From a virus (Duplodnaviria; Heunggongvirae; Uroviricota; Caudoviricetes), in IMG/VR virus record IMGVR_UViG_2617270950_000011: 30,900 bases of DNA. The stretch is one strand, 5' to 3'. Of the stretch, positions 3,410 to 24,057 are shown in pieces (position 1 is the stretch's first letter; each line of letters begins with the position of its first letter). The position numbers and the translations under genes were made by a program. The notes under the pieces were generated by a model that saw nothing but the letters and a program-made list of their open reading frames with translations, was not told the origin of the DNA and ran no database searches.

Positions 3410-3427
3410 AGCTGATCCCCTGTTTTT

Positions 3428-5864: not shown

Positions 5865-7908
5865 AGTTCCCTCCGTTCCAGACGTTCACATCCAGGCCAT
5901 GCTGTGCGGTATCATCCACATCAATACTGCGCGCCCGCCAGCCTTCAGGGGCCACAAGCTCCACCCGTGCGGCGGTTTTCGCGGTGGCCTGTCCGCCGTT
6001 TTCGTCACTGCTGCCACGCAGTTTCTGCCAGGCCTGCGTCAGCCAGCCCCCCAGATAATCACCGAGATAGCTGCCCACCGTGGAACCAATGGCAACCCCG
6101 ACCGGACCGGCAGCCGCCCCCAGCGCGCCACCGGCGATACTTCCGGCAAGAGAACCCACGGCACCGGCTTTATCGGCTGCACTGGCGCTGCTGTCCAGCA
6201 GTACAGGAGCCGCCATGGCACCGGCCCACAGGGCACCACCACCCAGCCGACCGGCACCACGGAACAGCCCGGCAAAACGCCCCAGCCCCATGCGGTTTCC
6301 GGCCGCCGTTAGCAGACCACCGGCACGGCTCATCATACGACCGAAGAAGCCCTGTTTACCGGCACTCTCCGCCAGTTGCTCACCGGCAGTCACGACGGTC
6401 GTGACACCCCGTCCACGTCCGGGGCCGCGTTTTTTACGGCCGCGCACGGTTTTGCCGTCACCGCTGACCACCACATCCCCGCCACCTGAGGCCAGGCCAC
6501 CCGCAGGCCAGTTGGTGACCAGCACGGGCTGAACGGCAGCCGGATTTACCCCGGTAAGGAAATTCAGGAACCGGCCAGCGCGTCCGGGCTGCGTTCCCGG
6601 TACAGTGGTCTGCGGTTTGCGGAAGGGCGACGTCAGCACGGAGGTCATCGCCATGCCATAGCGTAAGGGGGTTGCGCCGAGACGTAATGCCCCCGTCCCT
6701 GCAAACCTGAGCACCTTCAGCGCACGGGAGGCGAGATACATATACATCAGGTACTTTGCGGCGGTCTGCGCACCCTGACCAATACGATCCAGCGCATCGC
6801 CATAACCGGCGTCGCGCAGTGCCTGAAGCGTTTCCCTGACTTTCTGAATGGCCCGGTAAAAGCCGGTCGCAGCATCTCTGGCATACTCAAATCCCTGATT
6901 CAGAGCTGAGGCCGTCTGTGTGGCCAGCTTATCCTGTAAGCCGCTTTTCTGTGCCGCATCGGCATAATCCAGGAAGCCTTTCAGGCTCTTTTTCAGGCTG
7001 TCAAACGGTCCCTTTGCCATCACCTCGCGGGCAAATCCGTCCCAGACGTCGCCCATCATGGACGTCATTCCCGTCCAGGAATTCATGGCGTTTTTCTGGG
7101 CACCTTTTGCCTGTTCGGCCATCACCTGAAATAACAGGCGAATGCTGTCCGGCCCCAGTTTTCCTTTTTCGCCTTTCTCACGGATGATCTTCTGGTTTAC
7201 GCCCAGCTTATCGGCCAGTAACTGGTAAACGTTAATCCCGTATCCGGTCAGAATATTGGCGTCCGCTGCCTGGATACTCTGGCGGGCAAACATCTGTTTG
7301 AGTTGCAGGGACGCACCCTGTGCATCTGACAGTGACCAGCCGTGATAGCCGCCCTGATCCTGAAGCATGGTAATAAAGCGACGGGCTTCCCTGTCACTCA
7401 TACCGAACCCGCGACTGGAGGCGTATTCCTGCATAACCCCCGCCAGCCCCCAGGTGGTGTCTTTGGCGTTCTGTACCGCCCAGGCTTTCACTGCTTCCGT
7501 TTTTGCCGTATCGCCATGATTAATGGCGTTGAGACGCAGAATATAGTTCTCCATCTCTGCGGCCGGGCGGATAAAGGCTTTATTAAACCCGTAGACCGCA
7601 GCCCCTCCCGCCAGCATCCCGTAAAGGTTGCTTATCCGCCCGATGGTGCCGGTAATGCTGCCCTGAAGGCGGTCAAAATCTGACGTCACCGTGCGGATAC
7701 TGCCACGAACACCGGCAAGCGTTCGCTGCATACGGGAGCCGACAAGTTCTGTCTCCTGACCGGCACGACGTGCTGCATTTCCAAGACCACCCAGCCCCGT
7801 CCTGCCGGAACGGGAGAATGCCCCCAGCTCCTGTGACCACTGGCGGGATTTGGCAGAAATATTGCCGAGTAAATCGACAATCAGGGAGGCTTTCAGGTTT
7901 TTTGCCAT
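5851..7908 (-). CDS. Tail tape measure protein
   Basis: 685-aa Gly/Ala-rich ORF in the canonical position between the tube/chaperone genes and the baseplate genes. Confidence 0.7.
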   Translation of the reverse strand: MAKNLKASLIVDLLGNISAKSRQWSQELGAFSRSGRTGLGGLGNAARRAGQETELVGSRMQRTLAGVRGSIRTVTSDFDRLQGSITGTIGRISNLYGMLAGGAAVYGFNKAFIRPAAEMENYILRLNAINHGDTAKTEAVKAWAVQNAKDTTWGLAGVMQEYASSRGFGMSDREARRFITMLQDQGGYHGWSLSDAQGASLQLKQMFARQSIQAADANILTGYGINVYQLLADKLGVNQKIIREKGEKGKLGPDSIRLLFQVMAEQAKGAQKNAMNSWTGMTSMMGDVWDGFAREVMAKGPFDSLKKSLKGFLDYADAAQKSGLQDKLATQTASALNQGFEYARDAATGFYRAIQKVRETLQALRDAGYGDALDRIGQGAQTAAKYLMYMYLASRALKVLRFAGTGALRLGATPLRYGMAMTSVLTSPFRKPQTTVPGTQPGRAGRFLNFLTGVNPAAVQPVLVTNWPAGGLASGGGDVVVSGDGKTVRGRKKRGPGRGRGVTTVVTAGEQLAESAGKQGFFGRMMSRAGGLLTAAGNRMGLGRFAGLFRGAGRLGGGALWAGAMAAPVLLDSSASAADKAGAVGSLAGSIAGGALGAAAGPVGVAIGSTVGSYLGDYLGGWLTQAWQKLRGSSDENGGQATAKTAARVELVAPEGWRARSIDVDDTAQHGLDVNVWNGGNYGLY

Positions 7909-8035
7909 GGGTTACTGCTTCGTTCTGAGAATTTTTTCGGTCTGTCGGCAGTGCCGGTAAAGCTGCGATAAGGGGAGGTTAAGCGCCCACTCCGGGCCGC
8001 TTTTTGTCACCATCCCCAGCACAATTGCGGCTTCT

Positions 8036-8512
8036 TCAATCTGATCCCGGCACTGCATCTGGTCGCCCCCGTTCAGCGACCAGCTTTCCGGCCATCGCGG
8101 AATCAAGCAGGCTTACTGCCGCCATCAGTCGGGAGAGATCGCGCTCGCTGAGCTGTCCTATCTGACGCGGAGACAATGGCCCCTCAATCTGGCCGACAGC
8201 GGCAATCTGACGGCGCAGCAGCGCAATGCCGCGCAGTGCCGGTGAGGCCACAAGAACCGGACCGTTTCGGGTTTCCATAAGACGCTCGGCCTCGCTCTCC
8301 GCATCAATGCTGTCTTTTGCCGTCAGTTCGCGGAAGGTGACGCGGTATTCACGGGATTCCCCGAACGGCAGACCGTCGAGCAGATCCACATAGCCGTTCG
8401 CCAGTTGTTCAGCCAGCCCGGCGGTGCGGGGATCGCCGTCTTCAAGTGCATCCCGGATAGCCTCCATCACGGCCTCGTCAGAAACCGCCGTTTTTTTCTT
8501 ACGTGTGCTCAT
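8036..8512 (-). CDS. Putative tail assembly chaperone
   Basis: 158-aa acidic ORF between tail tube and tape measure, the position chaperones occupy in contractile-tail phages. A 64-aa ORF in the +1 frame (7912..8106) bridges to the tape measure start. Confidence 0.4.
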   Translation of the reverse strand: MSTRKKKTAVSDEAVMEAIRDALEDGDPRTAGLAEQLANGYVDLLDGLPFGESREYRVTFRELTAKDSIDAESEAERLMETRNGPVLVASPALRGIALLRRQIAAVGQIEGPLSPRQIGQLSERDLSRLMAAVSLLDSAMAGKLVAERGRPDAVPGSD

Positions 8513-8526
8513 TACATTTTTCCTGA

Positions 8527-8892
8527 TTACTGGACACGGGTACTGGTGGCGCTGGCGAACTTCGCGGAGATATCACCACCACCGTCAAGCGAGGCCGGTT
8601 CACTGCTCCAGGCCTTCGTCATCATGTGGACTTCACCGGTATCGGCCACGAACTCAATCGTGACCGCAGTCCAGGTGTTGATTTCATCGGCAGCCGGTGA
8701 ACCTTCTCCGCCAGCCGGAAATTTACAGTCCAGCGTCGCCTCACGGGGTTTCTCGCGATAGCCGTAAACTTTCGCGCCTTTCACCACTTCACGCTCAAAG
8801 CCGGACGGGGAGAACGTGGCCCCCTCAAGGGTGTCGTACTCCTGCCCGTTCACACGGATGGTGGCCGTGCCCTGATACTGTTTTCCGCTCAT
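8527..8892 (-). CDS. Tail tube protein
   Basis: 121-aa ORF immediately downstream of the sheath gene. Confidence 0.6.
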   Translation of the reverse strand: MSGKQYQGTATIRVNGQEYDTLEGATFSPSGFEREVVKGAKVYGYREKPREATLDCKFPAGGEGSPAADEINTWTAVTIEFVADTGEVHMMTKAWSSEPASLDGGGDISAKFASATSTRVQ

Positions 8893-8900
8893 GCCTTACC

Positions 8901-10403
8901 TCACAAAATGAAACGGATCTGCGCGGCCATGAAGCGGAACTGGTTAACCAGATCCGGTGTACACATCACATCCAGACGGTTACGGTCTTTTGTGTTGCGC
9001 TCCACGAGCAGATTCTTTTTAAAGGTGTCCAGATTTTCGACCAGTCCCAGATCCACCCATTCTTCCCCCAGCGAAATTAACTGAAGTTTCATGATCTCCG
9101 GTGTCACGATATTCTGACCGGCACGAACGGGCGTCCCGTCATCAGCCAGTTTATGGCGCGGAAAACGCTGCGTGATAAAGGTGCGCAGGGAATAACGCAG
9201 ATATGACAGGGTGTAGATGGTTTCCACATCCAGATAGCTGGGATCGATTTCGCCGTATGCATTCTGACGGTACATCGTCACCTGACGTTCAATCTGCACC
9301 ACATCCGCGGCCGCGACGGTCACCGTGGACATGCCGGTATAAAGCAGGCTGTTTCGCTCTTCCCGCGTCAGACGATCCGGTGCTTCAGGTGCCATACGGG
9401 CAGGCAGCGCCAGTGTCTGTAATGGTCGGGCCGGATCCGTTGACAGGGAGGGCGCACAGACCGCACAAATGGAGGCAGCCCAGACATAATCCGGCTCTGG
9501 TGCTTTAGGAATAGAAGTGCAGGTAAACAGGAAGTCATTACGGGATTCACCAAAACTGGTTGCCGTACCGAAGGTGCCGGTATGCGCCATCCAGACCATA
9601 CCGTCCGACATTTTTACCGGTCCCCAGCGTTTCAGCAGTTCATCCGCCAGAATTTTGAGATTTGCCGCATCCTTATAGGGCATGACGATGTAGTTGTACT
9701 GACGATTCCCCATCCCTGAGACGCTACGGGTGATATCGGGGTTTGTTGCCTTCTGTGTTGGCGCGACGAGCTCCAGCGTAAGACCGGCCGGTGTAGTTTC
9801 ACCGTCATAATAGTTCACCCGTAAATCATGAGCTGAGCATTCACCGATAAAGCGGGCGTTAACCCCCATGCTGCCTTTAAGTCCTTCAGCATTATCACCA
9901 CTGACTTCAGCTGCGATAGCAGTGAATGGCGCATCAGTGTCAGCGTTAATGACCTTAGCCAGCTCTTCCACAAGCTCTTTACCTTTTTTCCCCTTACTGA
10001 CGGGCAGGAGGTAACGGCGACCGCCGATGTAAACACTTAACACCCCGTCTGCCAATGCTGTTCCAATGATATTCATCACGCATGCCCTGGACTGACCTGT
10101 TCCAGCCCCCTGTGCAATGGCATATAACTCTGTGTCAGGGTTAATGGCGATAAATTCCTCTACCATCAGTGCAATCATGGAACCTCGCCCCCAGAGTTCT
10201 CTTGCTTGTGAAGCTCGGGTAATACGTACTGGTACATCAAGCTGACCGCGCCCCTGAATGGTAGTGTCTTTCATTGCAGCCTGACCAAACAACAGTACCG
10301 CCTGACGCTGTGGTGGAGTGCCGGTCACGGCCATTGAATTATTGATTTCAATCTGTACCAGCGGAATGCGATTGTTATCGCCGATATAATCAAAGTTAAT
10401 CAT
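8901..10403 (-). CDS. Contractile tail sheath protein (Mu gpL-like)
   Basis: 500-aa ORF; C-terminus ...DVMCTPDLVNQFRFMAAQIRFIL resembles sheath C-termini; followed by tube, chaperone and tape measure. Confidence 0.75.
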   Translation of the reverse strand: MINFDYIGDNNRIPLVQIEINNSMAVTGTPPQRQAVLLFGQAAMKDTTIQGRGQLDVPVRITRASQARELWGRGSMIALMVEEFIAINPDTELYAIAQGAGTGQSRACVMNIIGTALADGVLSVYIGGRRYLLPVSKGKKGKELVEELAKVINADTDAPFTAIAAEVSGDNAEGLKGSMGVNARFIGECSAHDLRVNYYDGETTPAGLTLELVAPTQKATNPDITRSVSGMGNRQYNYIVMPYKDAANLKILADELLKRWGPVKMSDGMVWMAHTGTFGTATSFGESRNDFLFTCTSIPKAPEPDYVWAASICAVCAPSLSTDPARPLQTLALPARMAPEAPDRLTREERNSLLYTGMSTVTVAAADVVQIERQVTMYRQNAYGEIDPSYLDVETIYTLSYLRYSLRTFITQRFPRHKLADDGTPVRAGQNIVTPEIMKLQLISLGEEWVDLGLVENLDTFKKNLLVERNTKDRNRLDVMCTPDLVNQFRFMAAQIRFIL

Positions 10404-10681
10404 CAGGACGTCCCCTTATCTGATGCTGCGGTTTTTTCAGCCACCGCCGCAGTTTTTTCTGCTACCGCTCCCGCTGGTTTTGCCGCCGCGCCGGTATTAG
10501 CAGTTGTGGCAGCCGGGGCAGGCTCCGCCGTTTTATCCACCACAATGACGTCGCCATCATTAAGACGGCGGCACCAGAACGGAGTGAAGGGTTTCTCTTC
10601 CCCGTCCTGAGAGAGCGGAGTCATCGTGTCGGGATCGCGGATCAGGCATCCCGGCGCAGGTTTAATAAAAATGGTTGTCAT
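10403..10681 (-). CDS. Hypothetical phage protein (Mu gp38-like position)
   Basis: 92-aa ORF with an Ala/Thr-rich C-terminus, ATGA-coupled to the sheath gene. Confidence 0.4.
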   Translation of the reverse strand: MTTIFIKPAPGCLIRDPDTMTPLSQDGEEKPFTPFWCRRLNDGDVIVVDKTAEPAPAATTANTGAAAKPAGAVAEKTAAVAEKTAASDKGTS

Positions 10682-10684
10682 CTG

Positions 10685-11248
10685 TTATTCCTCTGACAGT
10701 CCGGCGTTTTCACCGGCGGCAGTTGCACCAGGCAGACGGATGTGTGCCTTAAATTCCGGCGTGCCTTCCGGTTCGGTAAAGGTTTCGTAATGGCGCAGGA
10801 AATCATCCAGCGAGCTGATATCCGTCAGCGGGTCGATCATTTCCTCGCATGAGAAATACAGGGCGTACATCACGGCACCGCTGCCTGCCTGCGTTTCGGT
10901 GTAACCGTTGACCGCCTTTTCAAAGTAAAGCGGTGAGGTTTTTTCTGCTCTGAAGCCGTCCAGCACGGTAATCAGGCGGGCCACAATCTGATAAAGCCCG
11001 GGACGGCTGACCTCACGGCCATTGAGCATGTCGCCGATGACGTAGAACACCCAGTGACTGACCAGACGCCCACGGGTACGCCCTTCACCGGCACCCAGCC
11101 AGGCAACATAGATAGCCGGGGCGTTAATCAGCATGGTGCGCAGTACGCTGTCGCTCCAGTCGCCGGGATGTGTGTCAACAGACACCAGTTCATTCCCGAA
11201 ATACTCACGGATACGGGCGATGTACGCCTGCTCGGTTTCCGTAATCAT
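10685..11248 (-). CDS. Phage morphogenesis protein (Mu gp37-like, DUF1834-type)
   Basis: 187-aa ORF (MITETEQAYIARIREYFGNELVSVDTHPGDW...) upstream of the sheath; family assignment from memory. Confidence 0.45.
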   Translation of the reverse strand: MITETEQAYIARIREYFGNELVSVDTHPGDWSDSVLRTMLINAPAIYVAWLGAGEGRTRGRLVSHWVFYVIGDMLNGREVSRPGLYQIVARLITVLDGFRAEKTSPLYFEKAVNGYTETQAGSGAVMYALYFSCEEMIDPLTDISSLDDFLRHYETFTEPEGTPEFKAHIRLPGATAAGENAGLSEE

Positions 11249-11372
11249 ATAAAGCCCTTCTGGTTGCGCCCGAACACCGCCGCATCAGACTGCACCTGCG
11301 GTAAATCCCCGGATTCAGGGGCCGCACCGTCTGTATCCACGCCGACCGGCACGTTACCGTTCATGACATCTT

Positions 11373-12518
11373 TCAGCCAGGCCAGCGCCTCACGGTATCC
11401 GAGTAATACAGAAACGGTTTGCCATGATGGCGAATACCGTGCTGTATGGCACCGGCTACGGCGAAAACATTTTCAGCCAGGTCAAGGCTCCAGCCCACCA
11501 CAAAGCGCGTGCCACCGTCGATAACAAAGGTCACTTCCGGTGCGAATGGCCGCCCGTGAACCGGGTGCGCGCATTTCAGCTTCATGCCGTGACCGTCACC
11601 AATCCAGACATAATTCACCGGCATTTTTGACCAGTCGCGGCGCGTGAATCCCTCAAGCTGGCGGTATTCACTGCCGGTAACCCGTCCTTTTTGTTTCACC
11701 ACTTCCGGCAGTTTCTTCATTGCGCGGCGAATGGTGTCATAAGACGGCATGATATCGAGCATATAAGGCTCATCAGCGTGCCGGTGCTGCCATTCGGCAA
11801 CAAAATCCTCGTAAGCCTCGGTCATTGGTCGGCCGTTTGACTGGCGATACTGCGCCAGAAATTCGGGCAACCAGTTAATATCTTCGGCTTTTATTTCCTG
11901 GCGTTTACCTGGTGCCAGCAAAAGCAGGCGTTCAGCAGCGTTCTGTGCCTTATTAAAGGCCGCAATCCAGCGTTTCAGCGTGATTTCACTCAACACGCGA
12001 CTGTTTCCCTTTCTGGCGTTCGCTATCTCAACCATTGCCACAATGCGCTCATCCAGTTGCGAGTGTGACAGGCGGTCAACGATGAACCAGATAGCTTTAG
12101 CGCAGCTGAAACCGGGTTGTTGCGTGAATTTCAGCACCTCACTGACGATCGCAATGCGTGCGTCTGCCACCTGGCGCTGGTTTTCAGTCAGGGCATTGAG
12201 GCGTTCGACCATCAGTTGTGGTGATCCGCGATATGCCTCCACCGCATCAACCACGGCAGACGAGCGTCTGGCCTTTGTCACCACCGGAGCCGGTGATTCA
12301 TCGGCTTTTTGCGTCATCAGTTGCAGGGCATAACGTTCGCGTAATGCCTGCTGTGTCACTTCAGGTAAACAGTCAATGCTGTATTCAAAACCTTTAGCGC
12401 CTTTCTTGCGGCGTCTGCTGGTTTCGCTGGTTGCATACTTCCTGATTGAATAGCGAACGCCTTGCTCCGTTCCCGGCATCCCCGGTAATCCAACCAGTTC
12501 TTTGACTGAAGCAAACAT
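11373..12518 (-). pseudogene. Mu-type DDE transposase (MuA-like), C-terminally truncated after the second catalytic Asp
   Basis: 381 aa. N-terminus has the Mu winged-helix end-binding pattern (SVKELVGLPGMPGTEQGVRYSI...GAKGFEYSIDCLP); WIGDGHGMKL and ...YYSDTVRRWPG* match the first two DDE aspartate regions of MuA (recalled). The catalytic Glu and C-terminal domains are missing, and the next gene is gp37-like, not B. Confidence 0.75.
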
Positions 12519-12520
12519 AA

Positions 12521-12751
12521 TTACGCGACCTTACGAATGTAGCGGCTGGGCCAAATCTCCTCGGGCGGCACCCCCAGGCATTCCGCGATAATCCCCTCAT
12601 ACTTGGGAACATGGCGGTATACCGCGTTGTACAGATTGTTCTGACCCACGCCAGCTTTACGGGCCAGCGCCCTCATGCTTCCTTCTCTGGCTCTGACTTC
12701 CCCCAAAATTCTTTGAGGATGCCAATCAGGCTTAACTTCATTTCTCGCCAT
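12521..12751 (-). CDS. ner: Ner-like DNA-binding regulator
   Basis: 76 aa; ...WHPQRILGEVRAR...ALARKAGVGQNNLYNAV...PEEIWPSRYI matches the Mu Ner/Nlp pattern (recalled); sits immediately upstream of the transposase on the same strand. Confidence 0.75.
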   Translation of the reverse strand: MARNEVKPDWHPQRILGEVRAREGSMRALARKAGVGQNNLYNAVYRHVPKYEGIIAECLGVPPEEIWPSRYIRKVA

Positions 12752-12780
12752 GATTCATCTATCCTAAAAAGTTACGAAAT

Positions 12781-12804
12781 TTGATAACTAAACTTAGTTA
12801 TCAA
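12781..12804. promoter_or_regulatory. Operator-like 24-bp palindrome in the divergent ner/repressor control region
   Basis: TTGATAACTAA-AC-TTAGTTATCAA: 11-bp perfect inverted arms, with further TTGATA half-sites just upstream (~12779) and downstream (~12806); lies between the divergent Ner-like and repressor genes. Confidence 0.5.
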
Positions 12805-12935
12805 GTTTGATATAAGTATTGATCCACTTCTGCTTCATGTAAAGCAAAAAAACATCTTTCTTTTGTCTATTGTGGATCAATGGTTGCTGACAACACTAAA
12901 AGTTAATAATTTCAAATTGATAGGAAGAAAAGAAA

Positions 12936-13481
12936 ATGAACAAGCAAACAACAACATCTCTTTCTTTTCCTGGTGGTAGAAAAGAAAGCATTGCTGAGCG
13001 TCTGAAAAGGCTGATTGGCTCCCGCAGCGTCAGAGCTGCAGCAAGAGATTGGGGGCTTTCATTTTCAACACTAAACAATTATCTGTCTCGTGGCACTGAG
13101 CCATCCTTAAGTGTCGCCCTTCAGATTGCGTCTATCGAAGGAGTAAGTGTTGAGTGGCTATGTGGATTCAGTGATGCATCACAAGTGAATCGGTGCGAGA
13201 TCAAAGAAAATCAAGATGAAAGCAAGAAGATAATTATGACGATTATCAGCGCACTTGATGAAAAAGACTTAGAGCAGCTATCGAAAAATTTGGTTCTGAA
13301 TGGAGCCAAGTACTTAGCTCGGTTGTTAGAGCCTGAAAATCAAGATCTAATCCGCTTAGAAGGAAGGAAAAGAATAGCTGCATTACAGCTTGAAGGTATG
13401 TCTGACGAACGCGTCAGAGAGATTTTGGAAGAAACTGAGAGAAGTCGCAAATCTAACGCGGTAGAACCAAAAGCGGGTTAA
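12936..13481 (+). CDS. Phage repressor with CI-type N-terminal HTH (Phage_CI_repr-like)
   Basis: 181 aa; ...ERLKRLIGSRSVRAAARDWGLSFSTLNNYLSRGTEPSLSVALQIASIEGVSVEWLCG is a CI-type helix-turn-helix; divergent from ner across the operator palindrome. Confidence 0.7.
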   Translation: MNKQTTTSLSFPGGRKESIAERLKRLIGSRSVRAAARDWGLSFSTLNNYLSRGTEPSLSVALQIASIEGVSVEWLCGFSDASQVNRCEIKENQDESKKIIMTIISALDEKDLEQLSKNLVLNGAKYLARLLEPENQDLIRLEGRKRIAALQLEGMSDERVREILEETERSRKSNAVEPKAG

Positions 13482-13555
13482 TAGCATTAGCCCGCATTTT
13501 GCACTATATCGAGTATTTCGCATTGTTTGGAACGCCTTAAAAGACTAAAACCACA

Positions 13556-13711
13556 GTATCAAATGAGTTGCCGATTTTATAATAAATGACTAATTATTGC
13601 ACAATCGGTATCAAATAGACCTTATCCGCACATCTAGCCATCACCTGTTTTATTTCAGTATCTTACAGGTGATTTCACCTCCTTTCACTAAAACCCTTGT
13701 CGGTATCAAAT
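13556..13711 (+). repeat. Three direct copies of GTATCAAAT plus a 9-bp inverted repeat at the repressor/gene A junction
   Basis: GTATCAAAT at 13556-13564, 13608-13616 and 13703-13711; inverted repeat ATCACCTGT / ACAGGTGAT at 13640-13648 and 13665-13673; TTATCCGCA (DnaA-box-like) at 13622-13630. Function unknown. Confidence 0.4.
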
Positions 13712-15715
13712 GATTCACCTGGTTATATTAACGAGGCCGCCGCAGCATTCTCATGGAACAGCCCGAAAAAGGCTATTAACCCTTATCTGGACCCGGCGGA
13801 AGTTGCGCCGGTTTCTGCGCTTTCAAACCTGATCACTCTGTACGCTGCCGATAACGAGCAGGAACAACTGCGCCGCGAGGCACTGAGTGATCAGGTTTGG
13901 GAGCGTTATTTCTTTAATGAATCCCGTGATCCTGTCCAGCGCGAAATGGAGCAGGATAAGTTCATTAGCCGGGCAAAGTTGGCGCATGAGCAGCAGCGTT
14001 TTAACCCGGACATGGTCATTCTGGCAGACGTTAACGCCCAGCCTTCCCATATCAGCAGGCCGCTGATGCAACGTATTGAATACTTCAGCAGCCTTGGTAG
14101 GCCAAAGGCTTATTCCCGCTATTTACGTGAGACGATTAAGCCATGTCTGGAACGGCTGGAGCATGTACGCGACAGTCAGCTATCCACTTCTTTTCGCTTT
14201 ATGGCAAGCCATGAAGGGCTGGACGGCCTGCTGATTCTGCCTGAAATGAGTCAGGATCAGGTGAAACGCCTGTCCACCCTTGTTGCTGCGCATATGAGCA
14301 TGTGCCTTGATGCAGCTTGTGGCGATTTGTATGCCACCGATGACGTTAAGCCAGAAGAAATCCGCAAGACATGGGAAAAGGTGGCAGCAGAAACCCTGCG
14401 ACTGGATGTCATACCGCCTGCGTTTGAGCAACTCCGCCGGAAAAGAAACCGCCGTAAACCCGTGCCCTATGAACTCATTCCGGGTTCGCTGGCGCGTATG
14501 TTGTGCGCCGATTGGTGGTACCGGAAATTATGGAAGATGCGTTGCGAATGGCGGGAAGAGCAGTTGCGTGCTGTTTGCCTGGTCAGCAAAAAAGCATCTC
14601 CCTATGTCAGCTATGAAGCCATGATGCATAAACGTGAGCAGCGCCGTAAGTCGCTGGAGTTTTTCCGTTCTCATGAACTGGTGAACGAAGACGGCGACAC
14701 GCTGGACATGGAGGATGTGGTAAACGCCAGCAGCAGCAACCCTGCGCATCGCCGCAATGAGATGATGGCCTGTGTTAAAGGTCTGGAGCTTATCGCGGAA
14801 ATGCGCGGTGACTGCGCCGTTTTCTACACCATCACCTGTCCGTCACGTTTCCATTCCACGCTAAATAACGGCAGGCCCAACGCTGAATACGTTAATGCCT
14901 GGGCGTCTCTGCATCGTGTTCAGCAATTCCGCTTCTTTGGCATTCCGGGGCGTCAGGCTTACCGTGAACTGCGATTGCTGGCTGGTCAGGCGGCAAGGCA
15001 ACAGGGGGACAAAAAAGCAGGTGCGCCGGTACTGGATAACCCGCGCCTTGATGCAATCCTGGCTGCTGCTGATGCTGGTTGTTTTGCCACCTACATCATG
15101 AAGCAGGGCGGCGTACTGGTTCCCCGCAAATATCACCTCATCAGAACTGCTTATGAAATCAACGAAGAACCGACCGCATATGGCGATCACGGTATTCGTA
15201 TTTATGGCATCTGGTCACCCATTGCAGAGGGCAAGATCTGCACTCATGCGGTGAAGTGGAAAATGGTTCGTAAGGCCGTTGACGTTCAGGAGGCGGCAGC
15301 CGACCAGGGCGCTTGCGCCCCTTGGACTCGTGGCAATAACTGTCCCCTTGCTGAAAATTTGAACCAACAAGGGAAAGACAAATCAGCTGATGGGGATACC
15401 AGGACGGACATTACCTGCATGGATGACAAGGAGTTGCACGATTACCTGCACAGTATGAGCAAAAAAGAGCGCCGGGAACTGGCTGCAAGGTTACGCCTGG
15501 TGAAACCGAAACGGCGTAAAGACTACAAACAGCGAATTACAGACCATCAGCGACAGCAGCTCGTCTATGAACTGAAGTCCAGAGGATTTAATGGCAGCGA
15601 GAAAGAGGTCGATTTACTCCTTCGCGGCGGCAGTATTCCGTCAGGAGCAGGCCTGCGTATCTTCTATCGGAACCAGCGTTTGCAGGAAGATGATAAGTGG
15701 CGAAACCTGTATTAA
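13697..15715 (+). CDS. P2 gene A-family replication initiator homologue, apparently missing the HUH/Tyr catalytic core
   Basis: 672-aa ORF from a TTG start (true start uncertain). [23 protein letters not shown] and [27 protein letters not shown] resemble recalled P2 A segments, but no HxH or YxxxY motif occurs anywhere in the ORF. Confidence 0.7.
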
Positions 15716-15807
15716 TTACGCGGGTTAACAATTCGTGCTCTTAATAATACCAGGCATATCAGGCTGATGAACGTAAAAAAACGTTTTACATCAGTAAGAT
15801 TATTATA

Positions 15808-15827
15808 TACTGTAAATATAAACAGTG
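15808..15827 (+). promoter_or_regulatory. LexA (SOS) box
   Basis: TACTGTAAATATAAACAGTG fits CTGT-N8-ACAG with an AT-rich spacer; about 40 bp upstream of the small ORF and DinI-like gene; a second half-site (TGTATACAGTA) follows at ~15832. Confidence 0.7.
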
Positions 15828-15868
15828 GTTATGTATACAGTATTGCTTGTGGTGTCATAGGAGGAAAG

Positions 15869-16057
15869 ATGCAGGACTATTTTTTGGAGTCTTTGAAGCT
15901 CCAGCGCATTGATTTTTTTCTTAAGCTTGTAGCGGCTAGTGAGTGTAGTGATGAAGAGAAGGGGCTGGCTTTGCAGTGGGTTTCTGAACTGACAGATGAA
16001 CTCATGGCAAAAATCAGAACCCACGAATACAACCGCTCAATGGATGTCATCAGCTGA
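15869..16057 (+). CDS. Small SOS-controlled protein, possibly Tum-type antirepressor N-domain homologue
   Basis: 62 aa from the ATG at 15869, preceded by AGGAGG. Downstream of the LexA box and upstream of a DinI-like gene, the arrangement of the 186 tum locus; the function is inferred from context only. Confidence 0.4.
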   Translation: MQDYFLESLKLQRIDFFLKLVAASECSDEEKGLALQWVSELTDELMAKIRTHEYNRSMDVIS

Positions 16058-16067
16058 GGTGACTTTT

Positions 16068-16301
16068 ATGCGCATTGAAATAATGATCGATAAAGAGCAG
16101 AAGATTAGCCAGTCTACCCTAGACGCCCTTGAATCCGAGCTTTACCGCAATCTGCGCCCCCTATATCCAAAAACGGTAATTCGCATCCGCAAAGGTAGCT
16201 CTAACGGTGTGGAACTGACCGGACTGCAACTGGACGAAGAAAGAAAACAAGTGATGAAAATTATGCAGAAGGTGTGGGAAGACGACAGCTGGCTGCATTA
16301 A
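16068..16301 (+). CDS. DinI-family protein
   Basis: 77 aa: MRIEIMIDK...LDALESELYRNLRPLYP...KQVMKIMQKVWEDDSW aligns along its length with E. coli DinI (MRIEVTIAK...IDALAGELSRRIQYAFP...ISEILQETWESADDW, recalled); GAGGTG ribosome-binding site. Confidence 0.8.
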   Translation: MRIEIMIDKEQKISQSTLDALESELYRNLRPLYPKTVIRIRKGSSNGVELTGLQLDEERKQVMKIMQKVWEDDSWLH

Positions 16302-16309
16302 GAAACCTT

Positions 16310-16345
16310 GCCCCCAAGAGAATTTATTCTGATGGGGGCTAGTTT
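16310..16345 (+). terminator. Putative intrinsic terminator after the DinI-like gene
   Basis: GCCCCCA ... TGGGGGC stem with an inner AGAAT/ATTCT stem, followed by TAGTTTGGG. Confidence 0.45.
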
Positions 16346-16707
16346 GGGCAACGAGTGAAACGAGGCGTAAGGTGGGCGGCCATTTTGATAAGTGATTGTA
16401 CGCTTTGTGTTGTGAGTTCAACGGGTCGATGCAACGCTATCCTTAATCAAGGGGACGTTGCTCATACCCATCGATGCAATGAAAATCCATACTCATGGGG
16501 AAGACCAGAATGTCCCTGCCTTTTTCATTTTGTTCAGCACATGCACTATGGCCATTGCCTTCCCAAGCTAGCTATCGTAATCACTCAGCGTCAGTAAACT
16601 ACTGAAAAATTGTTTTACCTTGTATATCAATAATGCCAAATCATACCCAAAAAATCGAAAATAATTAGATCGACAGGCAGAAGGCAATGTGAATAATCTT
16701 AAAAACC

Positions 16708-16737
16708 TTGACTGCCAGTGAGGTTTGGTTCTATAAA
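16708..16737 (+). promoter_or_regulatory. Candidate sigma70 promoter for darT-darG
   Basis: TTGACT (16708-16713), 18-bp spacer, TATAAA (16732-16737); AGGA ribosome-binding site before the ATG at 16769. Confidence 0.45.
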
Positions 16738-16768
16738 TAGACTTACGAATTTGAAAGGATGAGTTGAA

Positions 16769-17350
16769 ATGAGCGAAAGGAAAAGAATTGAAGATCAGTA
16801 TCTTCTCTATCATTTAACATGTATGGATAATCTACCTAGTATTTTAGACACAGGATTAAGATCTCGTGCATCAGTAAAAGGTGAGTTTGTTGATGTGGCC
16901 GACGGTGAAATAATAACAGGTCGCGAAGCATTAAATTTGCAAACAATGGTTCCTTTTCATTTCTTTACTAAGAATCCATTTGATGGAAGAGTCCTGAAAG
17001 ATCATAAGGAAAAATCATTTTGTATTATTTCGGTTTGTCGGGCATTTGCCAAAGAAAATGGTTGGAAAGTTATCCCTAAACATCCATTATCCACCAGTTC
17101 TGTTATAGACCTCTTAGATTATGAACAAGGAATGGCCCAAATTGACTGGGAGCTTATGAATATAAGGGATTATAAAAATGCAGAATGCAAATCTGTATGT
17201 ATGGCTGAGTGTTTATCAAGTGTAACGGTCGAGCCGAAAAATTTCCATTGCATCTTTGTCAAAAATGATAACGAAAAAAAATATGTTGAAGGGTTGATAA
17301 AACAACAAGGATTAAGTATATTGATAACGATCAACACTTATATGTTCTAA
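16769..17350 (+). CDS. darT: DarT, DUF4433 ssDNA ADP-ribosyltransferase toxin
   Basis: 193 aa; N-terminal LLYHLTCMDNLPSIL matches the DarT YHITHIDNL signature; VPFHFF and a downstream AECLS (candidate catalytic Glu) motif; followed 4 nt later by a macrodomain gene. Confidence 0.8.
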   Translation: MSERKRIEDQYLLYHLTCMDNLPSILDTGLRSRASVKGEFVDVADGEIITGREALNLQTMVPFHFFTKNPFDGRVLKDHKEKSFCIISVCRAFAKENGWKVIPKHPLSTSSVIDLLDYEQGMAQIDWELMNIRDYKNAECKSVCMAECLSSVTVEPKNFHCIFVKNDNEKKYVEGLIKQQGLSILITINTYMF

Positions 17351-17354
17351 TTCT

Positions 17355-18326
17355 ATGATTAAGTATGCAAGCGGAAATCTTCTAAACTCTACATCGCAAG
17401 CTCTTGTGAATGCTGTAAACTGCCAAGGAGTCATGGGAAAGGGTATTGCTTTGGCTTTTAAAGAAACTTTTCCCTATAATTTCGAAGTTTATAAGAGAGC
17501 ATGCACCACTGGTACAATGAAAATTGGACAGGTTTTAATTGTAGAGGAAAAGGGAAAAATAATCGTAAACTTTCCCACTAAAGATAGTTGGAGAAAAAAA
17601 TCAACATATGATTTTATCTCGCAAGGCCTTGAATCTTTAGCAAAAATTATAGACGAAAAAAAAATTACATCAATATCAATACCACCTTTAGGCTGTGGTA
17701 ATGGGGGCCTCGATTGGAATAAGGTTGAGGCTCTTATTTTAAAAACTTTTCAAAATTTAGATAATGTTGATGTGGTAATTTATCCGCCTGCAACTAACAA
17801 TCAGCTTTCAAAAAATAAAAATGTTATTAATGCTAAGCATCTTTTGGTTCACTACGCCTATGGAAAATTAAAAGTTAAGCAAAAATATTCCCTTTATACA
17901 GTTTTTTATATTTGCGAATGTATTGAGAAAGCAAATCTTTTTTTATTCGATTTTAAACATGGTCGGCCATACTCTTCTGAGTTAGAAAATATTATGAAGG
18001 ATATAGCAAACCTTAAAGTTGAGTTGCAAGGAGATTTTGATGCTTTTATTGAAGATTATATTAATACTCATCAATCCAAAGAGTTACAAACCGAGTTTGG
18101 TAAACTAATCTCAACTTTAAATCCAAGTATAAGTTTTCTCAATGCTCTTAAAAATAAGATTGATTATACAGATAGCGTACATGTGATCACGAGAATTGCT
18201 AAAGAAAAAGATCATGGCTTGCATATTGACAATTTCAAAGAATATGAAAATATTGTGCAGCATTTAATTAAAAATGGATTGGTAATCGAAGATATTTTTA
18301 ACGAACTAAAAATAAAGGGAAGTTAG
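17355..18326 (+). CDS. darG: DarG, macrodomain antitoxin
   Basis: 323 aa; N-terminal ALVNAVNCQGVMGKGIALAFKETFP is a macrodomain signature; translationally coupled to darT (stop 17348-17350, ATG 17355). Confidence 0.8.
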   Translation: MIKYASGNLLNSTSQALVNAVNCQGVMGKGIALAFKETFPYNFEVYKRACTTGTMKIGQVLIVEEKGKIIVNFPTKDSWRKKSTYDFISQGLESLAKIIDEKKITSISIPPLGCGNGGLDWNKVEALILKTFQNLDNVDVVIYPPATNNQLSKNKNVINAKHLLVHYAYGKLKVKQKYSLYTVFYICECIEKANLFLFDFKHGRPYSSELENIMKDIANLKVELQGDFDAFIEDYINTHQSKELQTEFGKLISTLNPSISFLNALKNKIDYTDSVHVITRIAKEKDHGLHIDNFKEYENIVQHLIKNGLVIEDIFNELKIKGS

Positions 18327-18999
18327 TAGCGCTATTTTCAATTTTTTTGCTGAAATTGCGCATGCACACTCTTACGCATTATAGATGCGGCGTTAATCCC
18401 GCCAGGAGTGTTGTTTAATAAATTGAACTATTTCTGCATTGAAGGATCAACTTACGCATTCGCTGACAACGCAGGCACTCTCCTGGCTAAGCAGAAATTC
18501 AGAGTAACCAACTGGCACTTTTACAACAATTTTCTTATCAGTTGCGGCTCCATGACTTTCTGGTGGGATAACAAAGCAATTAAGGCGTGGTATTGTAAGT
18601 ATCCCGCATAATCATGCTAGTAACATTTGTCCCCCATGTAACCTAATTAAGGCAACTTCCGCTCTTCGCTCACAGTGAACCTCCATGTTTGTAAACCCGT
18701 ATATTTCGTTTTTCAAGTGGTCATTCAGATACGGATTTTCACTTCTCTTGGCTGTGCATGTCTATGCCGCATGAATCCGCATGATCGTTTGAGGATCGTT
18801 TTTGCTGAGGCCCCCCAGAACTGGCGGGCTTTTGCTTATGTCATGCAGGTGCATGAAAACCACTGCATAAAGCGGGCAGGCGTGGCGGGGATACGAGCGC
18901 GCGCTAACTCATAAATCTTAGATTATTAGTGGATTTATCTCATTGAAATGTGCACTATTCCCAGCATTGAGTTGTACCAGATGTCTTTATGGAGGGACT

Positions 19000-20766
19000 G
19001 TGGCTTTTGTAACTGATATTCGGCTTGAAGATAATGCTATTGCTGCACCTGCGACAGCACAGGTTATGGCTCAGAGGCTAGGATCTGTATTACGTAAGAG
19101 ATATGAAGAATTCATCCATAAAAGAGAGTGTGCACCAGGCCAAGCAGACTATGATGTAAAAATGGCTAGCAGGGCTTTAGCTGCATTCACTATGTATCAG
19201 TTAGGATGTGTGGATGATAAGTATGCAGGGGAGTCTGTATGTGATAGTAGTGAAGATGGTGGTATAGATGGAATAGCAATCAACCATAACGAAAAAATCG
19301 TTGTTGTTGTTCAATCAAAATTTCACCAATCGGGAAACGGCACTTGGACAAGAGCCGATTTTATGTGTTTTAAGGATGCTTGTGAGAAGCTACAAAGTGA
19401 AAGATACGAATTATTTGATTCCATATTGCAAAATAAAAGCGGGGAAATAAGTGCGGCTTTAAGTAGTTTTGAATACAAGTTCATCTTTGCGATGGCGCAT
19501 ACAGGTAAAAAAGGTGCTGCAGAGGAAATATTAAATGATATGCGGGAATGGCAATATCAATTAAACGCTGCAGCTTTTACACCTGAGGATGAGCCTAAAG
19601 AGAACTGGGGATTTCAGGTTCATTTAATATCCTCTGAAGATATGATGCATTGGTTACAGAATGGCTCTCGAAATCAAATTGATCTTAACAGGGTTGAAAT
19701 TGAGCGTTTTGGATTTTTGAATGAACCATATCAAGCTTTTTACGGGGCTATTAGTGGTGATCAAGTTGCAGAATGGTGGGAAGAGCATGGTGCTCGATTA
19801 TTTACAAAAAACATAAGGAATATGCTTGGTAAAACAGAAGTGAATGAGGAAATAAAAAAGACAGCTATAGATAATCCTGATATGTTTTGGTTTTATAATA
19901 ATGGGATTACTGTACTGGTTAAGGAGGTTGTTCCTCATAGACGAAACGCAGCTCCTAATATAGAGAGAGGGATTTTTGATTTTCGTGATGTAAGTGTCAT
20001 TAATGGTGCACAAACAGTCAGTAGTATTGGCGCATGTAAAGATGCGCTTGGTGAAAACATATATAGACTCAAAGTGCCAGCTAGATTCATTGTTATAGAT
20101 GATGATACTGATAATTTAACTGCAAATGCGATTACAAAAGCTAACAATTTCCAAAATAGAGTATTGGGAAGAGATTTTGCGTCGCAGCAGGCAGATCAAC
20201 ATAGATTGGCAAGGGAGTTAGTGCTTGAAGGATATCAATATCAGTTACTAAGAACAGATGAAGATCATTCACAGACAAATACGAAAGTCATTGACTTGGA
20301 TGAGGCGCTCAATGCACTCGCATGTTTAAGTAAAAATAATACGGTTGTATCGACACTAAAATCAAATCGCGGTAGGTTTTTTGAAAATTTTGAAGGCTCT
20401 CTATATAAAACTATTTTCAATCCAAGATTAAGTGGTTTAAAACTTATCAATACTGTTCTACATTTTAGAGTTATAGATAAGTTGATCGGTAAAACATTAC
20501 TATCAGTAGATAAAACTACCCATAGTCGCAAGCATTTAATTATTACGCATGGTAATAGATACTATGCGTCTGTGCTATTGAGCAACGTTTCTGGGATACA
20601 TAATAGCTCAGAAATTCTTGTTCCAGATGAAAAAAATCTTTCCGAAGAATTAAGTGCATTAATTCAACGTGCTGAAGAGTACATTGAAGATAATTACCCG
20701 AATGCCTATCCGGCAAGATTTTTTGCAAATCCAACGAAAATACAAGAGTTATACGATAATGTTTAA
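19000..20766 (+). CDS. Uncharacterised 58x-aa to 607-aa protein, tentatively AIPR-family with an N-terminal PD-(D/E)xK-like motif; candidate defence gene
   Basis: Maximal ORF 18943..20766 starts at TTG; the GTG at 19000 follows GGAGGG and the ATG at 19066 is an alternative. Motifs seen: DGGIDGIAINHNEKIVVVVQSKF, FWFYNNGITVLV, VINGAQTVSSIG. No Walker A, so not P2 Old. AT-rich. Confidence 0.5.
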   Translation: MAFVTDIRLEDNAIAAPATAQVMAQRLGSVLRKRYEEFIHKRECAPGQADYDVKMASRALAAFTMYQLGCVDDKYAGESVCDSSEDGGIDGIAINHNEKIVVVVQSKFHQSGNGTWTRADFMCFKDACEKLQSERYELFDSILQNKSGEISAALSSFEYKFIFAMAHTGKKGAAEEILNDMREWQYQLNAAAFTPEDEPKENWGFQVHLISSEDMMHWLQNGSRNQIDLNRVEIERFGFLNEPYQAFYGAISGDQVAEWWEEHGARLFTKNIRNMLGKTEVNEEIKKTAIDNPDMFWFYNNGITVLVKEVVPHRRNAAPNIERGIFDFRDVSVINGAQTVSSIGACKDALGENIYRLKVPARFIVIDDDTDNLTANAITKANNFQNRVLGRDFASQQADQHRLARELVLEGYQYQLLRTDEDHSQTNTKVIDLDEALNALACLSKNNTVVSTLKSNRGRFFENFEGSLYKTIFNPRLSGLKLINTVLHFRVIDKLIGKTLLSVDKTTHSRKHLIITHGNRYYASVLLSNVSGIHNSSEILVPDEKNLSEELSALIQRAEEYIEDNYPNAYPARFFANPTKIQELYDNV

Positions 20767-20770
20767 ACTA

Positions 20771-20794
20771 AAGGGAGGTTGCCTCCCTTTTTTT
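20771..20794 (+). terminator. Intrinsic terminator after the 607-aa gene (hairpin plus T-run)
   Basis: AAGGGAGG-ttg-CCTCCCTT followed by a run of T; the reverse strand also ends in a shorter T-rich stretch (possibly bidirectional). Confidence 0.6.
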
Positions 20795-20796
20795 AA

Positions 20797-21321
20797 TTAG
20801 AAATGGTATTCTTGGAATTCAATAACACCTTCTTTTATGAAATTGTTTATTTCTTGTAATCTTTTTTGCAATGGCAATAATTCATTACGTACAAATACTT
20901 TACTCGCCTTCTCTACATCTCCAAAGCCCCCAACATTATTAGGCATTATCCCCATCATTTGCGGCGGCACACGGTGTGCCGCCATCATGTCGTCCCGGCT
21001 CACGTTCTTGATATTTAGAAACTCATCCTTCGCCGCGACTTCTGACAACGGGATAATCTGAAGCCCGTCCTTTTTGCCGTTAGGAGAGTACATAAACAGG
21101 TTGCGGAAGTTGCCTGGCCCTTTGGCGCTTTTCATTGCGTTGCGGAGGTTGTTCACATCTTCTTGGTTCTGCGCGGCATCGGTCATGTACATGATGAAGC
21201 CTGCATGACTACCGTTAATGTAATACTTGCGGCGGAACAGCGTGGCGGACTCGTTGAGCAGGGCCGACGGAATGGCAGAAAGATAACCGGGCAGGCCGTA
21301 GACCTCCTGGTTGATGTCCGG
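20797..21321 (-). pseudogene. Portal protein (P2 gpQ-like) C-terminal fragment
   Basis: Frame open from 21321 down to the stop at 20797; ...AHRVPPQMMGIMPNNVGGFGDVEKASKVFVRNELLPLQKRLQE resembles portal C-termini (recalled). The N-terminal portion is absent. Confidence 0.5.
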
Positions 21322-22244
21322 TTATCGGCTTTGTTGCGCCCACGGTTGAATAGCGCACCGGACCAGAACGGATAAGCACTGTGTGTCAGGCTGGATGGCG
21401 TGGAAAAATAGGTTTGTCGCCATTTCTTGTGAATAGCCATACCGGAAGCCACTTTGCGCAGCTCCTGGAATTTCGGTATCCAGAAATATTCATCCAGATA
21501 CAGGTTGCCGTGATAACTCTGGGCAGTGCGGGCATTGGTGCCGAGGAAGTAAAGCGTGGCCCCGTTAGGAAGCACCATCGGATCGCCTTTCAACTCCACC
21601 TCCACTTCTTTGGCGAAGTCGATGATGTACTGCTTAAAGACGTGGGCCTGTGCCTTGCTGGCGGAAAGGAAAATCTGGTTACGTCCGGTCAGCAGGGCGT
21701 CAATCAGGGCTTCACGGGCAAAGTAAAAGGTCGCGCCGATCTGGCGTGACTTCAGCAGGTTGCGGATGCGGTTGGTTTTTCCGGCTTCCCACCAGTGGCG
21801 CTGGTAGTTGAACATGGAGGAATGGAAGATTTCTTCCAGCTTCTCAATCTGCTCATCGGTGAAAACATTCTTTTCCGGCTGACGGCGTGGGCCTTTGTTG
21901 CGGTTGGCGACGTTAGGGTTTAAGTCGGATTCGTTGCCGCCATTGTTAAACTTGCCGATCCGCGCGTGGCGCTCAGACTGGCGCGCCAGCAGGTCAATCT
22001 CTTTGAAATCTTTCCCTTCTTTGTGCTCCTTCATGATGAGCTGGCAGTAGCGTGCGGCGGTGGTGAGCTGCATCTGATCCAGCGGCCCATAGTCACCCCA
22101 CTTGTCGCGTTTTTTCCAGCTGTGAACGGTTGCAACTTTCTCGCCCAGCATTTCAGCAATGCGGGCTACGCGGTATCCCTGAAAGTACAGCAGCATGGCC
22201 TGCCGACGGGGATCGAGATCTGCGGGTGTCAGTGTGGTGTTCAT
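21183..22244 (-). pseudogene. Terminase large subunit (P2 gpP-like) N-terminal ATPase fragment running out of frame into the portal fragment
   Basis: Walker A-like [12 protein letters not shown] and Walker B-like [10 protein letters not shown]; credible sequence ends near ...[11 protein letters not shown] (~21350), after which the frame reads low-complexity junk to the stop at 21183. The nuclease half is missing. Confidence 0.7.
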
Positions 22245-22290
22245 GGCACAAACCTACAGCCTTGAATGAAGGCTTTCCCCGCCTGCGGTT

Positions 22291-22308
22291 TGTGTGGTTG
22301 TCTGGACA
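22291..22308. promoter_or_regulatory. TGT-N12-ACA dyad (Ogr-type late promoter element) in the gpP upstream region
   Basis: TGTGTGGTTGTCTGGACA; the P2 late-promoter dyad is normally centred near -55. It lies about 50 bp from the gpP start and may be the PP or PO element. Confidence 0.4.
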
Positions 22309-22632
22309 GACGGCATTGGTAATACATCTGGTGTCATTCCAGGCAAAACCATTACGGAACGACAGGCAGCGGAAGGGCTGATCTCCAACGTGCTGCGTGT
22401 GGAGCGGGCGCTGGAAAGGTGTGTGAAGCAACAGCCGCCGCAGAAAGTGTATGACGCGGTGGTGTCATTTGCCTTCAACGTGGGGACAGGCAATGCCTGC
22501 AGCTCCACGCTGGTGAAATTGCTCAATCAGCGGCGCTGGGCGGATGCGTGCCGACAGTTGCCGCGCTGGGTTTATGTGAAAGGTGTTTTTAATCAGGGGC
22601 TGGATACTGGAGCTGAAGGTGTATGTGGATGA
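22294..22632 (+). pseudogene. T4-type (GH24) phage lysozyme fragment, truncated at both ends
   Basis: VSFAFNVGTGNACSSTLVKLLNQRRWADACRQLPRWVYVKG parallels the RrrD-type lysozyme core ([41 protein letters not shown], recalled). The N-terminal catalytic region is missing and the C-terminus reads into the fibre fragment. Confidence 0.65.
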
Positions 22633-23578: not shown

Positions 23579-23580
23579 AT

Positions 23581-24057
23581 ATGAAAAGTTGTGATGATTA
23601 TCAACATGATTCTTCTTATGATTTCATATGGGATAAGGTAAATGCCAGATTTATGGCGTATATATTAAAAAATGAATATGAAAGAAATGGAATGTGGCCT
23701 AAGGAAGGGGTGGATATTTCAAATGAGACTGCTTGTGAATTCATGAAACAACCTCCGGAAGGAAAAATTCTTGGGGCAGATGATAATGGTATGCCTGCAT
23801 GGATTGATACGCCACCACTCACATATACAGAGTTAGTGGCTAAAGCAAAAACTGAAAAACAAGCACGTATAATAGAAGCTGTAAATTATATAAATAACAA
23901 ACAATGGCAGGGGAAAGCATTGCTTGGGAGACTGAATGCTACTGAACTGGAAATGTATAACATATGGCTTGATTATATTGAAGCATTAGAGGCTATTGAT
24001 CCATCAAAAGCCTCTGATACAGCCTTTCCGACTAAGCCATTTAACGATTCAGTCTGA
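23581..24057 (+). CDS. Tail fibre assembly protein (Tfa / gpG-like)
   Basis: 158 aa with the typical C-terminus ...QWQGKALLGRLNATELEMYNIWLDYIEALEAIDPSKA; immediately follows the fibre. Confidence 0.75.
   Translation: MKSCDDYQHDSSYDFIWDKVNARFMAYILKNEYERNGMWPKEGVDISNETACEFMKQPPEGKILGADDNGMPAWIDTPPLTYTELVAKAKTEKQARIIEAVNYINNKQWQGKALLGRLNATELEMYNIWLDYIEALEAIDPSKASDTAFPTKPFNDSV

Follow-up and report, generated by a model that had tools for sequence, protein, structure and literature searches.

Each end of bacteriophage Mu carries three MuA sites, the spacings of which differ (PMC3145075); the repressor gene is followed outwards by attL, and packaging begins at the left (PMC5977238). According to a review, Mu duplicates 5 bp of its target DNA, and B3 duplicates 6 bp (PMC8705779). 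The Sp18 family of Mu-like prophages from E. coli is likewise published (PMC2669165, PMC7430833), and Sp18-type phages often lie within other mobile elements, as was seen for six of the 10 copies considered in one study (PMC10132054); we found no paper that discusses a 4-bp duplication for this family.

The stretch of DNA analysed here, IMG/VR record IMGVR_UViG_2617270950_000011 (30,900 nt; hereafter, the window), carries a Mu-like element that abuts a P2/186-like gene A. From sequence comparisons, we put at roughly 0.88 the probability that the segment 13482-13727 is the left (repressor-proximal, attL-equivalent) end of an Sp18-family Mu-like prophage inserted in gene A, and that the three copies of GTATCAAAT within it represent transposase sites. 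In kind, the segment is ordinary: it belongs to a known transposable-prophage family, nested in a P2/186-like remnant. The genes immediately to its left are as follows:

11373-12518, minus strand: truncated Mu-type transposase gene (381 aa versus 695 aa for the full protein; Pfam HTH_Tnp_Mu_1)
12521-12751, minus strand: Ner-like early regulator gene (Pfam HTH_35, E = 1e-21; gene order as in strain HH35)
12936-13481, plus strand: repressor (c-type) gene, an ORF with a weak HTH_3 match, which reads towards the left end of the element

In many E. coli genomes, the counterparts of the repressor gene carry the annotation 'transcriptional regulator'. Further left, the window contains Mu gp37-like and tail sheath genes, whereas to the right of the segment come the Phage_GPA replication endonuclease gene, then DarT and the macro-domain DarG. 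In the ORF list, the repressor frame ends at 13481 and the gene A-like frame begins at a TTG at 13697.

The boundary between the two elements was located by megablast, using positions 13000-14300 as the query against 5,426 complete E. coli genomes. The Mu-like part matched a series of unrelated loci (elyC, citD, sgrR, xdhA, paaA and a P2 capsid gene), with every match stopping at 13727, whereas the matches to 'replication endonuclease' genes started at 13728; no record spanned the two parts together. L001 is an intact 186-like prophage, the gene A of which occupies 3967-6381 and encodes 804 aa; its match to the window starts from 4001, corresponding to nt 35 of gene A. At the breakpoint, the uninterrupted gene reads CAGCGGCT followed by TTAACGAGG (GGCT directly before TTAACGAGG), whereas the window reads CCTGGTTATA followed by TTAACGAGG; since the two sequences part there, the last base of the element is 13727:

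13727-13728, no strand: junction between the last Mu-like base (...GGTTATA, i.e. ...CACCTGGTTATA) and the first gene A base
13728-15715, plus strand: gene A pseudogene of the P2/186-type replication endonuclease, from nt 35 onward

The original prediction had two prophage lineages meeting within 13482-13720: the junction is real, but it falls 7 nt beyond that interval. The expected 4-bp target duplication at this end is TTAA, at 13728-13731.

A segment that immediately precedes a gene A-like ORF, and that combines direct repeats with an 8/9 match to a DnaA box, could in principle be P2/186 regulatory DNA, with the repeats as iterons and the DnaA box as parts of an origin or of an intergenic control region. 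We regard the chance of this as practically negligible. In intact 186-like prophages, a Dam methylase gene overlaps the gene A start and the repeat segment has no counterpart; P2-type similarity begins only at 13728, i.e. at nt 35 of gene A; at unrelated loci, the whole segment accompanies the Mu-like element; and the DnaA-like box is not conserved. Collinearity with P2/186-like references upstream of gene A was not observed, and the end-to-end alignment with a P2-like reference that would have spoken against a Mu-type end was not found for the segment. As judged from these alignments, all of 13482-13727 is Mu-like DNA, to which P2/186 intergenic DNA contributes nothing. The TTG at 13697 is in frame with gene A by chance only, and, because it lies inside the Mu-like end, this 'start' is an artefact; the native N-terminus of the gene A protein, MSHADMNNCSGF, is swapped for 11 residues in the window ORF. 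Doubt had already been cast on this start on the grounds that the third repeat overlaps it; the doubt was well placed, but there is no overlap, as 4 nt downstream of the TTG is where the repeat is located.

The relationship to complete elements is clearest for E. coli strain HH35, in which a full-length copy of 38.6 kb interrupts dgcE. This copy encodes a transposase, an AAA ATPase, Gam, Mor, head and tail proteins, Com and Mom, and its genes are ordered as in Mu-type elements (c, ner, A, B ... tail genes, com, mom), with an end beyond the repressor. Window positions 77-11397 correspond to 13472-24793 of the HH35 locus (L003), and 11396-13727 to 43429-45761, with 99% identity across 13.6 kb. 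The intervening 18.6 kb (L003 24794-43428) is deleted from the window element, which has thereby lost B, the genes for early functions, lysis and the head, and the larger part of the transposase gene; the transposase gene is shortened because this deletion cuts it at about 11396. The left end found in the window recurs in 233 of the 5,426 complete E. coli genomes. A search for related loci with the transposase gave two relatives only, and a search of a phage collection did not find a close sequenced phage. The arrangement of the window itself, sought via the deletion-specific 381-aa transposase, was seen in GCA_000711515.1 (JONB01000024.1) and in one ENA metagenome scaffold, both of which end short of the right end of the element.

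Within the segment, the three copies of GTATCAAAT, the 9-bp inverted repeat and the DnaA-box-like TTATCCGCA all lie where the original prediction had placed them. The GTATCAAAT copies occupy 13556-13564, 13608-13616 and 13703-13711 on the plus strand, and the second and third share a longer match, TCGGTATCAAAT. When read inwards from the terminus, the word is TTTGATACYG (i.e. TTTGATAC followed by C or T), and its starts at nt 18, 113 and 165 of the left end define three putative transposase sites, with the extents of L3 and L2 inferred:

13553-13575, minus strand: putative transposase site L3, with core TTTGATACTG starting at nt 165 from the terminus
13605-13627, minus strand: putative transposase site L2, with core TTTGATACCG starting at nt 113 from the terminus
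13622-13630, plus strand: DnaA-box-like TTATCCGCA, a single 8/9 match
13700-13722, minus strand: putative transposase site L1, with core TTTGATACCGA starting at nt 18, the same distance as for R1

At the right end of the HH35 copy, the word starts at nt 18, 40 and 75, and all six words of the two ends face inwards. The same layout (left 18/113/165, right 18/40/75) is present in JNE082796, where the Mu-like phage sits in the Stx phage LC727881 and its left end is 78% identical to that of the window, and in Sp18 of the O157:H7 strain Sakai, the left end of which matches the window at 160 of 176 positions; the right end of the full-length HH35 relative is matched in O157:H7 strains with 95% identity. 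In relatives 91-99% identical to the window copy, a single word thus recurs, inverted, at the two ends, and its outermost copies are equally distant from their termini. A matching inverted set at the other end of the element had been anticipated, and it is present in the 99%-identical full-length copies and in Sp18. A different sequence, GTACGCGGCGTA, was considered as the right-end sequence of the element in HH35 and was rejected, as comparison with the uninterrupted K-12 dgcE identifies it as host DNA; the misreading arose from right-end matches that start at variable query positions.

Six left ends (the window, CI5, JNE082796, NCCP13905, 95NR1 and strain 107) were aligned. Nucleotides 1-88, comprising the terminus, L1 and the spacer with its inverted repeat, are almost invariant; between nt ~89 and ~106, where the DnaA-like box is found, the sequence changes from lineage to lineage; the L2 and L3 blocks form conserved islands; and past nt ~176 all six ends diverge. 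The conserved blocks could derive in part from recent recombination rather than from selection. The DnaA consensus box TTATCCACA was not found in a conserved or clustered state, only as the single 8/9 match, the sequence of which varies by lineage. Because this box is not conserved among the left ends, and since the window holds 16 such one-mismatch matches, with the identical 9-mer TTATCCGCA again at 26064, it is probably a chance match. Additionally, an Rfam scan of 12700-14000 yielded chance-level matches only, with no family.

Could the repeats and the inverted repeat be functionless, chance features of AT-rich non-coding DNA? The region is indeed AT-rich, and a degenerate 10-mer, with one mismatch allowed, is not enriched across the window. 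Three exact 9-mers are, however, packed into 156 bp (13556-13711), with no others in the whole 30.9 kb, compared with an expectation of 0.37 for the window and a count of three reached in none of 100 shuffles; moreover, the words are kept as islands in otherwise divergent copies and are mirrored at the opposite end. An origin by chance is, on this evidence, extremely improbable.

A sister lineage, represented by an element in Shigella flexneri (L016) and by that in E. coli VL40 (L018), offers stronger evidence than the alignment. Its word is TTCAAGATA, starting at nt 18, 89 and 141 on the left and at nt 18, 40 and 75 on the right. The transposases of the two lineages are 75% identical overall; the identity falls to 47-49% over residues 1-180, a stretch that takes in the HTH_Tnp_Mu_1 region, versus 87-91% in the catalytic core. 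A changed word at nearly the same positions, together with a diverged DNA-binding region, is the pattern expected of transposase-binding sites and gives indirect support to the suggestion that the transposase binds these words. As a separate observation on VL40, the RefSeq call for its Vgr gene shows the same chimeric-start artefact as that described above for gene A.

The same comparison bears on whether the three words might instead be operator sites for the repressor or for Ner. They are found just downstream of the repressor gene, and a related palindrome, TTGATAACTAAACTTAGTTATCAA, is present in the c-ner control region, both of which would suit such a role; the exact word itself, however, is absent from that region, as it is from the remainder of the window. 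Furthermore, the word is present three times at the mom-side end, 38 kb off, and its first copy starts exactly at nt 18 from both termini, which fits a protein that acts on the termini, and, in the comparison of the transposases of the two lineages, it co-varies with their N-terminal region. An operator function is, in our estimation, improbable, and we retain the putative assignment of the words to the transposase, in keeping with the Mu-type end with transposase-binding repeats that had been envisaged here and that is now recognizable as a left end of the Sp18 type.

Two potential hairpins and a conserved spacer accompany these sites:

13468-13501, plus strand: candidate repressor terminator hairpin, overlapping the repressor stop and followed by AUUUUG
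13640-13699, no strand: near-invariant L1-L2 spacer, a candidate pac or host-factor site, containing the 9-bp inverted repeat

The arms of the inverted repeat, ATCACCTGT and ACAGGTGAT, occupy 13640-13648 and 13665-13673; they are 100% complementary and enclose a 16-nt loop. On the repressor-sense strand, the predicted hairpin (-11.5 kcal/mol, z = -3.4) is followed by a pyrimidine-rich tail, and might on that account serve as the repressor terminator rather than as a pac or host-factor site. The RNA fold at the repressor stop is nevertheless the stronger of the two (-18.8 kcal/mol, z = -4.2, with none of 200 shuffles as stable) and has a U-run; the inverted repeat, in contrast, combines its long loop with the lack of a T-run, and, among the six left ends, its flanks vary as little as do its arms, which is unusual in terminators. 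A scan for a simple consensus terminator called neither hairpin. The hairpin at the stop codon is, therefore, the likelier repressor terminator, and we consider this role for the inverted repeat unlikely.

The spacer as a whole has one variable position in about 60 across the six left ends. In Mu, the pac site and an HU-binding bend are located between L1 and L2, and by analogy we infer a packaging (pac) or host-factor role for the spacer and its inverted repeat. The VL40-type lineage has a different, shorter spacer that lacks the conserved block, and the terminase proteins of the two lineages are 45-48% identical; these differences are compatible with, and not proof of, a lineage-specific pac site.

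The element has inserted at many unrelated sites, and each of six independent insertions of the family is flanked by a duplication of 4 bp:

HH35 insertion: CGTA (checked against the uninterrupted K-12 dgcE)
AST46 insertion: GGCG
23CRST047 insertion: TCTA
JNE082796 insertion: GATG (annotated likewise by the depositors)
VL40 insertion: TTCA
Sakai Sp18 insertion: TAAA

A 5-bp duplication was tried for each insertion by shifting the termini and failed every time. Terminal 5'-TG...CA-3' sequences were not found either: the left end in the window finishes in ...GGTTATA-3', and the right ends of the relatives begin 5'-TATAGCG. A TG at the left end is confined to the Sp18/JNE subtype.

The element can be assigned to the Sp18 family by the nucleotide similarity of both its ends and its body. 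With Sp18 of Sakai and the STEC Mu-like phages, it shares the word positions, the right terminus (TATAGCGCGG), the 4-bp duplication and the gene order, and, like the Sp18-type phages, it resides inside another prophage. It differs from them in its left terminus (TA in the window subtype versus TG in Sp18), in a divergent repressor region and in the 18.6-kb deletion.

With Mu, the likeness is one of architecture. In both, an end is located beyond the repressor gene, each end has three sites, L1 and R1 lie at equal distances from their termini, R1 and R2 are spaced by 22 bp, and L2 and L3 come after a long L1-L2 spacer. R3 is inverted in Mu, whereas it is direct here, and the sequences of the Mu sites are unrelated to the present words. 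The MuA site consensus is YGTTTCAYTNNAARYRCGAAAR; a scan with this consensus recovered Mu's own sites (L1 at 6-27, L3 at 151-172, R1 at 6-27, R2 at 28-49 and R3, inverted, at 56-77) with scores of 18-22 out of 22, whereas the best score in the Sp18-type ends was 15 out of 22, which is not a convincing match. The transposase shares 23% identity with MuA, and the TG...CA termini and 5-bp duplication of Mu are replaced by TA and 4 bp here. The architecture is thus shared, and we do not claim membership of Muvirus proper.

Taken together, the proposed sequence of events is that an Sp18-family prophage would have transposed into codon 12 of gene A in an older P2/186-like prophage. The copies of GTATCAAAT would form the cores of the transposase-binding sites L1, L2 and L3, which, together with the right-end sites at nt 18, 40 and 75, would place transposase subunits such that the two termini are paired; the paired termini would then be cleaved and joined to the target with a 4-bp stagger. 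On this scheme, the mom-side end should lie some 6.3 kb past window position 1, reading ...TCGCCGCGCTATA on the plus strand (5'-TATAGCGCGGCGA... inwards), and should be adjoined by a copy of TTAA, then by gene A nt 1-38 and dam. An exact scan of the genome and metagenome contigs for the predicted right junction, CTGCAGCGGCTTTAA(N0-2)TATAGCGCGGCG, gave no match.

From 13728, the ORF carries the Phage_GPA domain and matches the gene A of a 186-like prophage of E. coli with 100% identity; the identity to L001 extends over 4001-5154 and 5545-8573. Compared with the intact gene of the 186/P2 type, the first 34 nt are missing on the window side, separated by the Mu-like insertion, and an in-frame deletion of 390 bp at about 14879-14881 deprives the GPA domain of its C-terminal third, such that the Pfam profile is covered from 1 to 212 of 321 positions, versus 1-321 in the intact protein. 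Further right, the P2/186-like remnant continues with a portal fragment, a truncated terminase and a tube-gpD fusion, beyond which are the host genes ybjL and ybjM. Both of the nested prophages are defective, and the left end described here is a relic.

We tentatively suggest, at somewhat less than even odds, that the Sp18 family constitutes a mechanistically distinct Mu-like branch, characterized by a 4-bp stagger, 3' ends in TA rather than CA and a swappable word, TTTGATACYG, and that the spacer is an undescribed cis element, namely, a left-end pac site or a site for a host factor in the transposition complex. Much of what has been gained is housekeeping: the boundary of two nested defective prophages is now fixed to the base, and the start of the gene A-like ORF is revealed as a chimeric artefact made by the end of a transposable phage. 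The clean end map, the word swap, the invariant spacer and the 4-bp duplication give the locus a modest interest of its own. For the family, which often disrupts other prophages, including Stx phages, the map of the ends (L1-L3, R1-R3, the termini and the 4-bp duplication) would let annotators delimit its elements to the base, and the pair of lineages with swapped end words offers natural material for the study of transposase-end specificity.

The Sp18-family Mu-like prophages are flanked by a 4-bp target duplication, which was found at six independent insertions (CGTA, GGCG, TCTA, GATG, TTCA and TAAA), in contrast to the duplications of 5 bp for Mu and 6 bp for B3 (PMC8705779). The right terminus is 5'-TA in all copies, and the left terminus is either TA or TG. 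The positions of the duplications are:

L003 (E. coli HH35 locus) 7132-7135 and 45762-45765: target duplication
L018 (E. coli VL40) 501-504 and 35124-35127: target duplication
L023/L024 flanks (E. coli O157:H7 Sakai): target duplication of Sp18
Window 13728-13731: expected 4-bp duplication at the studied element

The start of the VL40 RefSeq Vgr CDS (L018 35112) falls within the right end of the Mu-like prophage, the terminus of which is at L018 35123; like the TTG at window 13697, this start is a chimeric artefact. Within the invariant L1-L2 spacer, the + strand of window 13674-13687, TTCACCTCCTTTCA, is similar to the 3' end of 16S rRNA, and the inward strand thus carries a strong Shine-Dalgarno-like AAGGAGGTGA, after which no convincing ORF follows on that strand.

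Beyond the junction, the P2/186-type gene A has an in-frame deletion of 390 bp (5155-5544 of L001, the intact 186-like prophage; window about 14879-14881), with 3-nt microhomology, through which the Pfam Phage_GPA domain loses its C-terminal third. Between gene A and the portal gene, the P2/186-like remnant has a variable region that encodes a DarT/DarG pair (ADP-ribosyltransferase and macro domain) and an AIPR abortive-infection protein (window 16769-18326 and 18943-20766). The P2/186-like prophage is strongly decayed (window 20797-22244 and 26468-27736); features of this part of the window are:

Portal fragment of the P2/186-like prophage: 131 aa
Large terminase of the P2/186-like prophage, truncated: 353 aa
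Tail tube (FII)-gpD fusion in the P2/186-like prophage
Window 24041-25072: acyltransferase gene
From window about 28281: host ybjL/ybjM

The Mu-like element has itself undergone an internal deletion of 18.6 kb (L003 24794-43428; window about 11396-11397), with 2-nt microhomology, that cuts the transposase to 381 aa and leaves it adjoining a gp37-like gene. Window 1-220 aligns in inverted orientation to the HH35 copy (L003 12482-12264) and is adjoined by a recombinase gene; this is probably an invertible tail-fibre segment, caught the opposite way round to that in HH35. Finally, the repressor-ner intergenic region (window about 12781-12804) contains a palindrome, TTGATAACTAAACTTAGTTATCAA, followed by TTTGATATAAG; the palindrome is similar to the end word TTTGATAC and may serve as an operator or as a transposition enhancer.
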